Source: a virus. From it: a stretch of DNA of 64,000 nucleotides. The position numbers and the translations under genes were made by a program. Under the pieces are notes generated by a model. The model saw nothing but the letters and a program-made list of their open reading frames with translations, was not told the DNA's origin and made no database searches. Positions 44,608 to 58,015 of the stretch are shown here, in pieces. Location of the stretch: positions 64,276 through 128,275 of the IMG/VR virus record IMGVR_UViG_3300046779_002065. One strand, 5' to 3'. Position 1 is the stretch's first letter; the number at the start of each line of letters is the position of its first letter.

Positions 44608-45624
44608 TTATTGGTTCCAGTATTTTTCCAAGTTTTTGCTTAAGTCAATTAAGATTTCTTCGTTCAAAGGATTCTTTAAGTACTCAGTCACATCACTTGG
44701 GTTTTTACCTAGTACAGTGCTTGACTTCATGTGGTAGATAAATCCATCACCACGGAATGAAATCATTTTGTAGTAAGTAGAGTCCTTAACGATTGCACGC
44801 AATTTCAATGTTTCCATATCCAATCCGGCTACGTCCAGGAACGTTTGTGCTGCACGACGTTTGTTGGTCTCGATAGACTCACCATTGATGTAGCGGTCCA
44901 TGATGTCATACATAACATCGTTTGGCGTATTCTTACGGTATTGTGCGCTGTTAGGATCGATTACCTTACACACATACATAAGTTTATTAGGATTCTTGTC
45001 AAAGAGCTTCTGCAACTCAGCCAACGCTTTGTTACGTACTTTCTTCCATTCTGTTTTGGTTCCTGCAGTCTCCTCGTATTTGTCAAGGTAAAACTTAGGT
45101 GGTTTTGCCATCGTACGCGCGTGCTCAAGACTCTTAGCAACCAGGGAGAATCCTCCAGCTTCAATTGCTTTAAGTTTGATCAGATCGTAGGGATCTTTTG
45201 CCGGATCCAGGTACAGCGGATCATTACTCATTCTCAAGACAATTTTGTCCCAGAAATCACCGTTGTCCGGACGAAGCACTTTAACCTTATTCCAGAACTC
45301 TACATCAGTAACATCGATGACGTTTGATGCAAGCATTTTCTCAAGTGTCATAACCAGCGCGCGGATCTCTTTGATCTTCGCTAGTTTTTCTTCTTCAGGA
45401 AGCATCTGGATCTCAGGAGCGAACTCGTTCAGTCCAGTTACATACTGCTTAATACCGTTTCTTTCCAAACATGCTAACTGTTCTTCATGGAAAATTCCAT
45501 CATACAGTGCAAGGTTGTACTTTTCAAGACCCATGTTTGTAGAACCTGCTTCTACATAAGGTCGGATTGCTAATGCTGCCCCTCGCTTCGCGAAGGTTCC
45601 GCTTTCTACTATTGTAACGCTCAT
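44608..45624 (-). CDS. Conserved crAss-like protein downstream of the MCP
   Basis: 338 aa, assigned by synteny. AAACCAACCAACCA leader. Confidence 0.6.
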   Translation of the reverse strand: MSVTIVESGTFAKRGAALAIRPYVEAGSTNMGLEKYNLALYDGIFHEEQLACLERNGIKQYVTGLNEFAPEIQMLPEEEKLAKIKEIRALVMTLEKMLASNVIDVTDVEFWNKVKVLRPDNGDFWDKIVLRMSNDPLYLDPAKDPYDLIKLKAIEAGGFSLVAKSLEHARTMAKPPKFYLDKYEETAGTKTEWKKVRNKALAELQKLFDKNPNKLMYVCKVIDPNSAQYRKNTPNDVMYDIMDRYINGESIETNKRRAAQTFLDVAGLDMETLKLRAIVKDSTYYKMISFRGDGFIYHMKSSTVLGKNPSDVTEYLKNPLNEEILIDLSKNLEKYWNQ

Positions 45625-45655
45625 TGGTTGGTTGGTTTATCGCGTATCGCGATTT

Positions 45656-45701
45656 GCGAACTGCAGTGACTCGAACACTGTGGACACCGGCTGTCAGTTC
45701 A
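45656..45701 (-). ncRNA. tRNA-like element lacking an anticodon arm
   Basis: TGAACTG-ACAGCCGGTGTCCA-CAGTG-TTCGAGT-CACTG-CAGTTCG-C: 7-bp acceptor stem, 5-bp T stem and canonical T loop. Confidence 0.6.
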
Positions 45702-45738
45702 GGATATTTGCCGGGTAGCGAACTACCCGGCGTATCCT
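45701..45738 (-). promoter_or_regulatory. Strong hairpin after the MCP stop (no U tract)
   Basis: GCCGGGTAG-TTCG-CTACCCGGC, extended by AGGATA/TATCCT. Confidence 0.6.
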
Positions 45739-45749
45739 ATAGGGTCAGA

Positions 45750-47366
45750 TTACAAAGAAGTTCCAGTAACTGGGTTTCTCATAACAATCTTCAACACCTT
45801 CGTAGGGTCTTTCACCCAGATCGCTGGCATTGTTTGCGTCATGAACACTCTGTAACCGTTGAAGTTTCCAGAGCTGTTGAAACCTTGTGTACGTCCCATG
45901 TAGTCCATGGTACCGTTTTGGTAGAACCATTTCAATTCGTTATCCCATTTCAACTTCAACAAGTAGATGTTGTCGTTGGTGTTGTCGGTGATATCGAACA
46001 CGATGAAGTTGTAAGAAGACAATGGGAAACCATCAACGATTGGGTTTTCAATGTCGTTAGTATGAACGTTGTCAAACGCTGGGTTCAATACAAATTTCAC
46101 ATTCGCTAAGAACGGAATAGTGTAAGAAGTGAACGCAAAACCGAAGTTCAAGTCCATTCCTTTACCAGTGATTGCCCCGATGTCTGCAGCCTGTACAACC
46201 AAACCTGCACCTAAAGCTTCTTTCTTGATCGCTTCATTTACCATCTTCATACCAGCCATACCAGTTTGAACAATGATTTGACGCTTTGGATCTGGTCCTT
46301 TGAACTCAACCTTACCATTGTAGAAGTTGAAGATTTCAGAACGGAACAATTCCAATGTGAAAGAACCTTTGTTGTACACACGTTTGAACGCGTTGTCCAA
46401 CTGCTTCCAAAGACCCACTGATAAGCGGATATCATCTGGACCATCTTGCTTAACACGTCCACCTTGTCCCCACATTAAGTAGGTCTCGATGTCTGTAGCA
46501 ATCTTAGTCAAATGAGCTGCTTCCAAGTTGGTTACGAATGAACGAGACAAGTTTCCGTTTTCGTAAGCTTTACGAACGAATTCTTTACCCATCTTCTTAA
46601 CCATGTCGTCGATGCTGGTGATTGAAGGATCAACACTCTTGTCGAAGTTTCTCCAGATCTCTGTTACAGGAACAGTACCATCAGCATTCATTCCACCTTT
46701 CATCATCAACTCAGCACGAGAAGAGATTGAATAGTGTACGTGAGCTTCCGCACCGCCTACGAAGTTGTAGAACTCACGGAAACCTGCAGAGATTTCTCCG
46801 ATGTCAGAGAATTTCTCTCCATATTCACCACGAGCAGAACCTTTACGGAAATACTTAACACCTGGTTTTAAGTAGTTCTTGTCGAAATACTTGGTGTTGT
46901 CGTTGTTAACAATTTGAACTGTGTAGATGAAACCGTCACCAGCTGGAAGAATGTCTTCAGCAGTGATGTACAATTCCACACCATTGTATTTGTCGTAGGT
47001 GATGATATCACCGTGTCCGAAAATACGTTTGTTCATTTTGATTTTGAAAGAAGTACCATCAACACCTGGAGTGCTGTTAGTTTCCACGTCCTCAGTGATG
47101 TACGGAAGATCCTGTACTACAGGAACCTGCCATTTGTACTCACCACGAGCGTTGTCAACCATGATGGTGTTTTTACCACCGAATGATGCCATCTGGTAAA
47201 GAGGCATTTCTACCTTTTGTACCATTGCCCACAAGTCTACCGGACCTAAATCCATAGGTTCGCTTGACTTAAGCATGTTTACTAAGTGGTAGGAGTCCAA
47301 GTGTGACTGCACCTTGTACTGGGTGTCACGCAAGAACAGACCGTTGTTTAATACTGGAGTTGCCAT
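45750..47366 (-). CDS. Major capsid protein
   Basis: 538 aa with strong codon bias. Portal-X-MCP order and the C-terminal IWVKDPTK motif match crAss MCPs. Confidence 0.88.
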   Translation of the reverse strand: MATPVLNNGLFLRDTQYKVQSHLDSYHLVNMLKSSEPMDLGPVDLWAMVQKVEMPLYQMASFGGKNTIMVDNARGEYKWQVPVVQDLPYITEDVETNSTPGVDGTSFKIKMNKRIFGHGDIITYDKYNGVELYITAEDILPAGDGFIYTVQIVNNDNTKYFDKNYLKPGVKYFRKGSARGEYGEKFSDIGEISAGFREFYNFVGGAEAHVHYSISSRAELMMKGGMNADGTVPVTEIWRNFDKSVDPSITSIDDMVKKMGKEFVRKAYENGNLSRSFVTNLEAAHLTKIATDIETYLMWGQGGRVKQDGPDDIRLSVGLWKQLDNAFKRVYNKGSFTLELFRSEIFNFYNGKVEFKGPDPKRQIIVQTGMAGMKMVNEAIKKEALGAGLVVQAADIGAITGKGMDLNFGFAFTSYTIPFLANVKFVLNPAFDNVHTNDIENPIVDGFPLSSYNFIVFDITDNTNDNIYLLKLKWDNELKWFYQNGTMDYMGRTQGFNSSGNFNGYRVFMTQTMPAIWVKDPTKVLKIVMRNPVTGTSL

Positions 47367-55957: not shown

Positions 55958-55970
55958 AGGGTTGGATTAG

Positions 55971-56041
55971 TTGTCCCGAGAGGATTCGAACCTCTACGCT
56001 CTGAGTCAAAGTCAGATGAACTGCCGTTATTCTACAGGACA
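55971..56041 (-). tRNA. tRNA-Gln(TTG)
   Basis: Acceptor TGTCCTG/CGGGACA, anticodon arm TCTGA-CTTTGAC-TCAGA, T arm AGAGG-TTCGAAT-CCTCT. No encoded CCA. Confidence 0.92.
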
Positions 56042-56044
56042 ATG

Positions 56045-56121
56045 TGGTTGCGGGAGTGGTAATCGAAACCACCTAGTGGAGCTTATGAGACTCCCGAGTG
56101 CACCAGCTCTACTTTCCCGCA
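56045..56121 (-). tRNA. tRNA-Met(CAT)
   Basis: Acceptor TGCGGGA/TCCCGCA plus ACCA, anticodon arm GGAGT-CTCATAA-GCTCC. D arm is atypical. Confidence 0.82.
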
Positions 56122-56153
56122 ATGTATCCCGGATCACTGCTCCGGGAAGGCAG

Positions 56154-56471
56154 TTATTCTTTGGGTTCCATGACAATCTGCGTCTTGGATGCAAGCTTAT
56201 AAAGAGCAATAAACGCATGAGGTGAAAACACCTCCAGCTCACCACCTTTATGTTGCACAATCCAATCACCATGCGTCACGGTCACAATTCCTGTTTTCGT
56301 AGGGATGTCGTACTCGTACTTTTTACCCACTACACGGATCTGATAGTCTGTGTTACAAGCTTCCAGGAAATTGCTTGTGTGTGTAGTATTGTTTCCCGTG
56401 AACTCGTGTGCAGCCACTCGTGTTCTGGACAGTCCACTAGGGACGATTCTACGATACTGGAAATAGAACAT
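56154..56471 (-). CDS. PGDYG-like small phage protein
   Basis: IPTKTG.VTVTHGDWIV..KGGELEVFSPHAFIALY resembles the widespread GDWII..GE.YPC.P..F..TY phage family. Confidence 0.6.
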   Translation of the reverse strand: MFYFQYRRIVPSGLSRTRVAAHEFTGNNTTHTSNFLEACNTDYQIRVVGKKYEYDIPTKTGIVTVTHGDWIVQHKGGELEVFSPHAFIALYKLASKTQIVMEPKE

Positions 56472-56472
56472 G

Positions 56473-56802
56473 TTATTTTACAATTACCCAATCTTCGCTG
56501 AGCATATCTGTTTGAGATGCTAACCATCCCATTAAGATTTTGTCATCAGCCGTTTTAAACAAAATGTAGGGAAGTACATCTGCTGAACCTCCATTGCTTT
56601 CTGCAAACGCTTTTGAATGTTCGTTCCAAAATCCTTCGGCAGGTAATTTTGGTTGACCTTTTCCAAGAGCGATCCACATGTCTTTACCGTTCCAGCCTTG
56701 TCTGGCAACTTTGTGTCCTTGCTTGATCAGACGAATTGCCTGACCAAAGTCAAACTGACCACCGTTTAGAGGTTCTTGATCTGTGTATAGTTCTGTAGTC
56801 AT
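56473..56802 (-). CDS. DUF2829 / Tad2-family anti-defence sponge
   Basis: FGQAIRLIKQGHKVARQGWNGKDMWI...PYI...GWLASQTDMLSEDW. Likely start at 56802. Confidence 0.85.
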   Translation of the reverse strand: MTTELYTDQEPLNGGQFDFGQAIRLIKQGHKVARQGWNGKDMWIALGKGQPKLPAEGFWNEHSKAFAESNGGSADVLPYILFKTADDKILMGWLASQTDMLSEDWVIVK

Positions 56803-56806
56803 AGTC

Positions 56807-57094
56807 TTACCAAATAATGGAGATATCGCGTTCGCCAATCATCAGCTTTACACTATCATCGATAATAACCTTATCGGCGTGTACAAGAATCTGTGGTGTT
56901 ACATACACGTCGTCTCCGGGTTTAACTTTAGTTACATCTTCACCGACAGCAAACACTTCAAGTGATTTTAACTGTGCGATGAATTCTTGCTGTACTCTAG
57001 TTTTTACTTCGTCAGTTAATTCAATAACTGAAGGTTCTGGTGCAGGAGGAATCGTTAACAAGATTCTACTTCCTAATATTTTCATTTCACTCAT
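56807..57094 (-). CDS. groES: GroES-like co-chaperonin
   Basis: LGSRILL...EVFAVGEDVTKVKPGDDV...MIGERDI. Confidence 0.78.
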   Translation of the reverse strand: MSEMKILGSRILLTIPPAPEPSVIELTDEVKTRVQQEFIAQLKSLEVFAVGEDVTKVKPGDDVYVTPQILVHADKVIIDDSVKLMIGERDISIIW

Positions 57095-57097
57095 GGT

Positions 57098-57352
57098 TTA
57101 CTTTTGCCAGGTTGCTGCTTTTACTGCCCACATTTGAGCTGTCTGTGCTTCTGTGATAGCGATGGAACACATGCGCTGTACTTCAGGGTCCCTGGAGCTT
57201 TCGCGAATAAAGTTGATGTGATCAATAGCGGTCGCAAAGTCCTTCTTGATCTCATTGACTGTAGGATGTCCTCCAGGATTGAAAGACAATCCAACCGCCT
57301 TTTCACCGTAAGTCAACTCACGGTTGGTTGTTGGTAATGTTTCTGTTGTCAT
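57098..57352 (-). CDS. Acb2/Tad1-like cyclic-nucleotide sponge
   Basis: 84 aa from ATG 57352. Helical hairpin ending R.CSIAITEAQTAQMWAVKA, with an N-terminal FNP motif. Confidence 0.72.
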   Translation of the reverse strand: MTTETLPTTNRELTYGEKAVGLSFNPGGHPTVNEIKKDFATAIDHINFIRESSRDPEVQRMCSIAITEAQTAQMWAVKAATWQK

Positions 57353-57368
57353 AATGTTGGTTTTATGT

Positions 57369-57443
57369 TGGAGCTTCTTCCTGGAGTCGAACCAGGTTAT
57401 CATGATTACAAGTCATGCGCATCGCCGTCAATGCTTAAGAAGC
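57369..57443 (-). tRNA. tRNA-Thr(TGT)
   Basis: Acceptor GCTTCTT/AAGAAGC plus TCCA, anticodon arm CATGA-CTTGTAA-TCATG, T arm CCTGG-TTCGACT-CCAGG. Confidence 0.95.
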
Positions 57444-57586: not shown

Positions 57587-58015
57587 TGGTGGAGATGGGC
57601 GGTATCGAACCGCCGTCCAGATAAAGCAGCAGATATGTACAGTTATTTACATGCTTAGCACTGAATCAAACTTCTCGCGTCCAAATGGTTATGGACCGTG
57701 GTGTTTCATTCTGCACCGTAAAGGGTTGACCGAAGTCAAATTCCACCACCTGGTTTTAGCTATCAAGTGTGAAACCAGGAAAGTCCACTTCGAGCAGGGA
57801 CACCCTGCTCCGCTTGTCATTTTGGATCAGGGATGACTCCCCGTGACTTAGGCTGCCATGTCGTATTCGTTCACGAATTCGATTGCATCTTCAAAAGTCA
57901 TTTCAGATAATTCTACGTTGCCGTTTAATTGTTTAATACGTGATTAAAGAGAACAGTATCATCTCTCTGCATGTGTACATGTCCCCGACAATCCTGTCGA
58001 ATCCATTTCATCCCC
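57587..58015 (-). ncRNA. ssrA: tmRNA (429 nt)
   Basis: 5' GGGGATGAAATGGATTCGAC and 3' GGCGG-TTCGATA-CCGCC-CATCTCCACCA, with a G3:U Ala identity pair. Tag frame 57922-57848 encodes GNVELSEMTFEDAIEFVNEYDMAA*. Confidence 0.93.

Follow-up and report, generated by a model that had tools for sequence, protein, structure and literature searches.

An anticodon-less mini-tRNA with a conserved fold between the capsid gene and the next gene of a phage

The 125-nt spacer between the major capsid protein gene and the next gene of a phage contains a tRNA-like element of 45 nt (46 nt with C45656) that consists of an acceptor stem, a D-like hairpin and a T arm. Our analysis confirmed that this element is not a chance fold: in a close relative more than half of its stem positions are different and the pairing is kept. 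On sequence, it can be assigned to an RNA family that is uncatalogued in Rfam and is carried by phages and mobile DNA. We propose, with about even confidence, that the element is a mini-tRNA gene excised by tRNA enzymes, which would release a small RNA and split the transcript of the capsid gene and its neighbor.

Anatomy of the spacer and its element

The window analyzed here is a stretch of 64,000 nt (positions 64,276 to 128,275 of IMG/VR record IMGVR_UViG_3300046779_002065) and forms the second half of a complete virus genome of 128,275 bp with direct terminal repeats. A blastn comparison of the locus to 50,697 phage records found nothing, and tblastn matches of the capsid protein in annotated phages were distant only (at most 28.8% identity) and came from crAss-like, Cellulophaga and similar phages, which fits the assignment of this phage as crAss-like. 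All genes around the element lie on the minus strand, with the capsid gene directly upstream. The 338-aa gene downstream had no match in PHROG and is kept behind the capsid gene in most relatives.

The phage also carries its own tmRNA at 57587-58015 (-), scored at 90.7 bits by Rfam and assigned by ARAGORN a tag of 24 residues that ends in ...DMAA, and three tRNAs (Gln, Met and Thr) at 55970-57443 (-); the tRNA-Met was called by ARAGORN only, since the Rfam tRNA model fell below threshold there. CCA is encoded by the tRNA-Met, the tRNA-Thr and the tmRNA, and not by the tRNA-Gln or the mini-tRNA. Outside the window, at G000:C1:29481-29984, the genome codes for a tyrosine recombinase (PF00589, 61.2 bits) within an open frame of 398 aa.

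Table 1. Features of the capsid/next-gene spacer and the genes that border it, in the order of transcription. Positions are those of the window.
Feature	Position	Strand	Basis
Major capsid protein gene, 538 aa	45750..47366	(-)	phrog_11589 major head protein, E 9.3e-33
Hairpin 1: 9-bp G+C-rich inner stem, UUCG loop, 5-6-bp outer stem	45702..45738	(-)	fold
Anticodon-less mini-tRNA, 45 nt (46 with C45656)	45701..45657	(-)	sequence; Rfam mascRNA sub-threshold; covariance models R1-R3; covariation
Acceptor 5' strand UGAACUG	45701-45695	(-)	sequence
D-like hairpin ACA-GCCGG-UGU, 11 nt	45694-45684	(-)	sequence
Linker CCA	45683-45681	(-)	sequence
T stem 5' strand CAGUG	45680-45676	(-)	sequence
T loop UUCGAGU	45675-45669	(-)	sequence
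T stem 3' strand CACUG	45668-45664	(-)	sequence
Acceptor 3' strand CAGUUCG	45663-45657	(-)	sequence
Trailer C-A-A with discriminator-like C45656, no CCA	45654..45656	(-)	sequence; predicted RNase Z/trimming site after 45656
Hairpin 2: 6-bp stem AUCGCG-AUA-CGCGAU	45639..45653	(-)	fold
A/C-rich unstructured leader AAACCAACCAACCA before the ATG of the next gene	45625..45638	(-)	sequence
Downstream structural-module gene, 338 aa, MSVTIVE... start	44608..45624	(-)	open reading frame; homologous N-termini in relatives

The initial annotation had described a 7-bp acceptor stem, a 5-bp T stem with a TTCGAGT loop and a mini D-like loop, with no anticodon arm; this element is indeed present, as are both flanks named with it, a TTCG hairpin before it and ATCGCG-n3-CGCGAT after it. 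The acceptor stem, whose first pair is U-G, stacks directly on the T stem, and the anticodon arm is absent, the gap between the D-like hairpin and the T stem being only 3 nt. Because G45695 can form either acceptor pair 7 or a fourth pair of the D stem, the register is ambiguous between 7+3 and 6+4 pairs; in the 7-bp register, the base at position -1 of the acceptor is C. Hairpin 1 has no U tract, and its last base is the one before the acceptor stem. On the other side, a GCAAA trailer is common to the window, the close relative L001 and a family member in a tRNA array (L199), and the leader, which lacks a Shine-Dalgarno sequence and a TAnnTTTG motif, resembles ACCAAC leaders found in relatives. 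The complete 125-nt spacer folds at -42.7 kcal/mol compared to -28.6 +/- 3.3 kcal/mol for shuffled sequences (z -4.29), and none of 200 shuffles folded as well. For the element alone, ViennaRNA gave a minimum-energy fold of -11.6 kcal/mol compared to -10.4 kcal/mol for the tRNA-like fold, a gap of 1.2 kcal/mol.

Conservation in the capsid clade and in a wider family

The capsid protein has at least 597 relatives in viral contigs, from which 80 loci were retained, representing 65 distinct capsid/next-gene spacers. Only two of these spacers, those of the window and of L001, contain the element. A search of 72 sources with covariance model R1 likewise matched, among capsid loci, the window and L001 only; this model was seeded from a single sequence because MAFFT alignments placed the stems out of register. 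Since just 2 of the 65 distinct spacers carry the element, the operon does not need it, and the element is dispensable in this position. Relatives do not appear to use authentic tRNAs for punctuation in its stead, since a tRNA was sought in 60 capsid loci and found in none. Within the 128-kb genome itself, model R2 gave one strong match and five weak ones, all of 15.7 bits or less.

The L001 locus is syntenic with the window, encodes a capsid protein that is 96% identical and retains the tRNA-like fold. Four of the seven acceptor pairs and three of the five T-stem pairs are changed (L001 stems GGUAUUG/CAAUAUC and UAGGG/CCUUA), so that 13 of 24 stem positions differ from the window with the pairing kept. 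The D-like hairpin differs in 1 of 11 bases, the T loop in 1 of 7, the flanks of the element are nearly identical, and hairpin 2 is unchanged; the exact 17-mer of hairpin 2 was found in one viral contig only, that of L001. The inner stem of hairpin 1 is also kept, and its outer stem is wholly different, with both sides changed and still paired. Stem changes with kept pairing are a signature of selection on the RNA fold. The structural conservation on which the initial annotation had made its proposal depend is thus borne out, with compensatory changes in L001 and in the wider family described below. In the minimum-energy fold of L001:4667-4760, the partner of the acceptor 5' strand and of the bases preceding it can instead be the ACCAAACCAACC leader before the next gene; this pairing has no equivalent in the window and may be due to chance.

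Other members of the clade have different structured RNAs between the same two genes. In L013-L034, about 60-230 nt past the capsid stop (e.g., L013:4624-4815), a conserved spacer has, besides a G+C-rich hairpin and hairpins that vary, a single-stranded CUCCACCUCC-like motif that is invariant and a stem-loop of about 36 nt that is conserved; 12 of its 22 predicted pairs have changes on both sides, and it had no Rfam match. A third conserved structured type, about 90-170 nt past the capsid stop, occurs in L037, L040, L044, L048, L049, L056, L063 and L068 and has a closing stem of the type CCUAUUG...CAAUAGG; L037, L049 and L053 gave no Rfam match at E<=1.

Pattern scans for the D-like hairpin combined with the T loop, carried out over viral, metagenome and genome collections, returned 113 distinct sequences, of which 18 have a 5/5 T stem and an acceptor stem with 6-7 of 7 pairs; most of the others form few pairs. 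When 3' halves were swapped among sequences, 36 of 12,656 combinations (0.28%) gave full structures, which corresponds to about 0.3 expected compared to the 18 found. The features common to this candidate family, ACAGNCGGUGU, are a 6-7-bp acceptor stem, an N-ACA/UGU-N' hairpin with a GNCGG loop, a linker of 3-7 nt, a 5-bp T stem carrying a UUCGANU loop and the lack of an anticodon arm, and the window has all of them. In a 19-row alignment, 97.5% of cells were paired, whereas shuffles reached 62.7%, and changes on both sides were seen in 11 of the 15 pairs; for all members except L001, the pattern fixes the hairpin and the T loop and the sequences were then picked by their stems, so this pairing percentage is partly given by construction. 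The pair that flanks ACA...UGU was not imposed by the pattern, and it is formed in 17 of the 18 members compared to 34 of 95 non-members (Fisher p 2.8e-6), with five pair types (A-U, G-C, C-G, G-U and U-A). Its presence in 17 of 18 members indicates that the D-like hairpin is a 4-bp stem with a GNCGG loop. The tRNA-like fold is the minimum-energy fold in 12 of 19 members, the window being among the exceptions. Model R2 scored the window at 57.1 bits and 18 other sources at 36.9-54.7 bits.

In this pattern-based scan, the 11-nt hairpin is common to members whose element G+C ranges from 24% to 76% and whose stems are unrelated; the trailer is not conserved across the family. A relaxed hairpin scan, with at least 118 matches listed (117 distinct), added one new member and therefore says little on how variable the hairpin is. 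That member, L390, lies on a viral contig and has the same anticodon-less design with a G-C in place of the A-U first hairpin pair (GCA...UGC) and a U-A outer pair, which suggests that the exact-pattern scans overstate how fixed the hairpin sequence is. A full-text literature search of openly accessible articles gave no description of the family; PMC10690425, a 2023 catalog of candidate viral structured RNAs, mentions tRNA-like candidates, and its supplementary tables may list the family.

Family members occur in a range of genomic contexts. For example, the element of L199 ends 4 nt before a tRNA-Tyr in a tRNA array, and in L215 a member lies 138 nt after a tRNA-Leu. In L134 (G005:1-2145), an AT-rich mini-tRNA at 597-645 follows 159 nt behind a tmRNA (100-438, 132.5 bits), and a promoter scan of G005 called no promoter for this copy. 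Judging from these three placements, the family appears to be handled like tRNA. The AT-rich form of the L134 type is found with identical sequence in 21 loci on viral and metagenome contigs, some of which measure 0.3-1.9 Mb, and downstream sequences diverge about 100 nt after the mini-tRNA, as at a prophage junction. In addition, the member L083/L086 precedes an FtsK-like gene in a phage of about 46 kb with high G+C, and in L160 some 230 nt separate an intact member from a fragment of an integrase gene. Copies in L222 and L232 (metagenome) and L258 (a Lachnospiraceae genome) are broken right after the T loop, with unrelated sequence beyond, and several family copies lie at contig ends. These contexts suggest that, much like genes for tRNA and tmRNA, family members serve as targets of integration. 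Finally, four bacterial genomes have one strong copy each, and in one bacterial family only 1 of 121 genomes searched, namely the query genome, carries the element, so that in bacteria it looks like sporadic mobile cargo rather than a core gene.

Proposed excision of the element and competing explanations

On tRNAs, the stack of acceptor and T stem with its elbow is the part recognized by RNase P, by RNase Z and by the CCA-adding enzyme. If the element is a mini-tRNA gene that such enzymes excise, its stack and elbow would make the transcript a substrate of the host tRNA-maturing enzymes. RNase P would cut at the 5' end of the element, between 45702 and 45701 or one base further in, and RNase Z or 3' trimming would free its 3' end near 45656, thus releasing a small RNA and splitting the late transcript between the capsid gene and the next gene. 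Since hairpin 1 ends at the base before the acceptor stem, a cut between 45702 and 45701 would leave a capsid mRNA whose end is flush with a stem, which could serve as a protective 3' cap. Similarly, since hairpin 2 begins two bases after C45656, the downstream mRNA would start with a stem as a 5'-proximal cap, two bases in. The two halves of the transcript could then possibly have different lifetimes without a terminator-promoter pair. This local anatomy is consistent with excision by RNase P and RNase Z; the cleavages, the protection by the hairpins and any function of the released RNA are inferred.

The TAnnTTTG motif is a Bacteroidota promoter element. No such promoter-like motif was found in the spacer before the next gene; it is present in spacers of some relatives, and several short spacers combine it with a hairpin and a T run. 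Contigs from RNA runs, which are assembled and cannot show RNA ends, cover the capsid gene (X17, X18 and X20, from relatives about 90% alike); two of these contigs, both from one study, stop with loose ends some 10 nt beyond hairpin 1, and no part of these assemblies falls on 45164-45633.

The initial annotation had suggested that the cut sets the stoichiometry of the capsid and downstream products, or else that the element is a decoy for tRNA-targeting defenses. The local anatomy fits the stoichiometric purpose, which is weakened by the restriction of the element to 2 of the 65 spacers and by family contexts that offer no mRNA to cut. Since the element is dispensable and the family also occurs where nothing needs cutting, a function of the released RNA is favored. 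This argument leads to the main rival explanation, which we regard as possible and somewhat unlikely, namely that the released mini-tRNA acts in trans as a tRNA top-half decoy, a sponge or a ligand for a host or defense factor; its place behind the most heavily expressed late gene would then merely secure its supply, the messenger being cut as a by-product. Members in a tRNA array, behind a tmRNA and beside an integrase, where no mRNA needs cutting, speak for this explanation, although neither an aminoacylation identity element nor CCA is conserved. RNase P does not need a hairpin such as the D-like hairpin, as minihelices suffice. The recurrence of the 11-nt hairpin in elements of very different G+C and with unrelated stems therefore points to a trans function, but its invariance is in part an artefact of the search pattern, and L390 is a variant with a G-C first pair. 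The many stem differences between the window and L001 within near-identical flanks suggest cassette exchange or fast compensated change, and the sporadic occurrence in bacteria fits accessory mobile cargo; however, Ro60 and a CCA-adding enzyme were both sought in the phage genome and neither is encoded, and a decoy would face competition from all the tRNAs of the cell.

A bolder form of this explanation, which we consider improbable, is that the element founds a new and widespread class of phage and mobile mini-tRNAs that act as decoys or inhibitors against factors recognizing tRNA ends or elbows and are timed by the capsid gene. Defense toxins that modify tRNA 3' ends exist, and the capsid protein is a known trigger of such defenses. 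The conserved elbow and the free acceptor end might engage host factors by which tRNA ends or elbows are attacked or sensed, and with its gene behind the capsid gene, the decoy would be made exactly as capsid protein appears.

There is also little probability, in our view, that the element is a cis-acting structured spacer that tRNA enzymes leave uncut and that serves as a barrier to 3' exonucleases, as a site for RNase E or other processing, or as a regulator of read-through or translation. Within this clade, unrelated structured RNAs are concentrated in the capsid/next-gene spacer, many relatives having structured spacers of 190-470 nt without T runs and one group having a conserved fold as well as covariation, and hairpin 1 alone could protect a 3' end. 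Such a role, however, leaves unexplained why the precise architecture of acceptor stem, T arm and D-like hairpin with a canonical T loop is kept, and why the same architecture is found in tRNA arrays elsewhere.

Very improbable is a function at the level of DNA, in which the element would be a tRNA-gene-like site for attachment or recombination, or its scar. In favor of this, a tyrosine recombinase is encoded by the phage, and family members behave as integration targets, as seen from the integrase gene fragment near L160, from L222, L232 and L258, whose copies break off directly behind the T loop, and from the copies at contig ends. However, the recombinase gene lies about 80 kb from the element, which is inside a structural operon, and compensatory changes, as found in the 5' strand of the acceptor and in the pair of the D stem, are meaningful only in an RNA; together, the distance and this RNA-type covariation make an attachment site unlikely. 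Moreover, tRNA and tmRNA genes are integration targets too, yet they are RNA genes. Finally, a tRNA gene that has decayed by loss of its anticodon arm, or a chance fold, is disfavored and scarcely credible: the element does resemble a tRNA with an internal deletion and phage tRNA genes lie 10 kb away, but its stems are unlike those of the phage's own tRNAs, its fold is kept with compensation in L001, and 18 distinct members of the same arm-less design were found where about 0.3 were expected.

Comparison with known tRNA-like RNAs

Comparison with catalogued RNA classes indicated that the element is neither a tRNA nor a member of the mascRNA family, a Y RNA, a tmRNA domain or a terminator. Over the whole window, Rfam gave only the tmRNA and two tRNAs; at the gathering threshold there was no match on the element or on the spacers of relatives (19 loci), and at E<=1 (11 loci) there were only tmRNA and weak chance matches. 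The element does have a 7-bp acceptor stem on a 5-bp T stem with a 7-nt loop of the UUCRANY type, kept with compensatory changes, as in a tRNA. Even so, ARAGORN, which found three tRNAs and the tmRNA elsewhere in the window, called nothing at 45657-45701, and the tRNA model RF00005 had no match at E<=10 in 45300-46100. With respect to termination, no terminator-like site was found on the minus strand in 45625-45749, and stretches of four or more T are absent from the spacer.

The only Rfam match on the element was to the mascRNA-menRNA model (RF01684), which covered exactly 45657-45701(-) with 24.5 bits and E 0.017. This score and that of L131 (25.1 bits) are both below the gathering score of 42.5, and the anticodon-like stem of the model is absent, 15 model positions being represented by 3 nt here. 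The long RNA upstream of mascRNA gains its 3' end when RNase P cuts at the mascRNA 5' end, and the small RNA itself is set free by RNase Z. The two RNAs align end to end and have in common a 7-bp acceptor stem, a 3-bp D-like stem with a short loop ending in GG and a T arm. Since mascRNA is vertebrate and nuclear, its likeness to the phage element reflects convergence and not homology. The tRNA-like domain of tmRNA is a split acceptor/T domain around the tag reading frame, with a G3-U70 pair and an encoded CCA, whereas the element is contiguous, has no reading frame and no CCA, and its acceptor pairs 1-3 are U-G, G-C and A-U. The species 1 and 2 RNAs of phage T4 are also phage-encoded and non-decoding, have tRNA-like ends and are processed with tRNAs; they are set apart by description, being about 140 nt long and located in a tRNA cluster, whereas the element lies inside a structural operon.

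The Y RNA-like YrlA RNAs are likewise non-decoding mimics of acceptor, D and T arms that also occur in phages (PMC4201824). According to that article, a 7-bp acceptor is important for RNase P, and the YrlA of M. smegmatis, with an acceptor stem of this length, is an in vitro substrate of RNase P RNA and receives CCA (PMC4201824). Unlike the phage element, YrlA as described there is far larger, has a Ro60-binding module and lies beside rsr (PMC4201824). In the complete 128-kb genome, we found no PF05731 (TROVE/Ro60) domain, and no Y RNA model, that of YrlA included, matched the element.

Closest in arrangement are the t-elements of plant mitochondria, at which cleavage by RNase P and RNase Z forms mRNA ends (Forner et al. 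2007, PMC1920247). Like the phage element, these are non-decoding and tRNA-like, with a conserved T arm, and lie beside protein genes; their ends coincide with mRNA 3' or 5' ends, and the excised piece may accumulate and gain non-encoded C or A (PMC1920247). They are organellar, about 74 nt long and degenerate cloverleaves, share no sequence with the phage element and have no conserved mini D hairpin. Since the element also combines a tRNA-like fold and a conserved T arm with a position beside a protein gene, it can be said to resemble a t-element, one recognized in this case from its sequence. A bacterial precedent for such a cut is the secG-leuU co-transcript of E. coli, in which RNase P is reported to separate the mRNA from the tRNA and to define the end of the upstream mRNA (PMC2241853); the unit in that case is a working tRNA, whereas the phage element cannot decode.

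The ACAGNCGGUGU RNAs would represent a new family, with a mini D hairpin that is strikingly conserved across very different G+C contents and genomic contexts. If the element is excised, the phage would be borrowing the tRNA-maturation enzymes of its host to cut a structural-gene transcript and to cap both products with hairpins, which would make it a counterpart, in a bacterial virus, of mitochondrial tRNA punctuation and of MALAT1/mascRNA.
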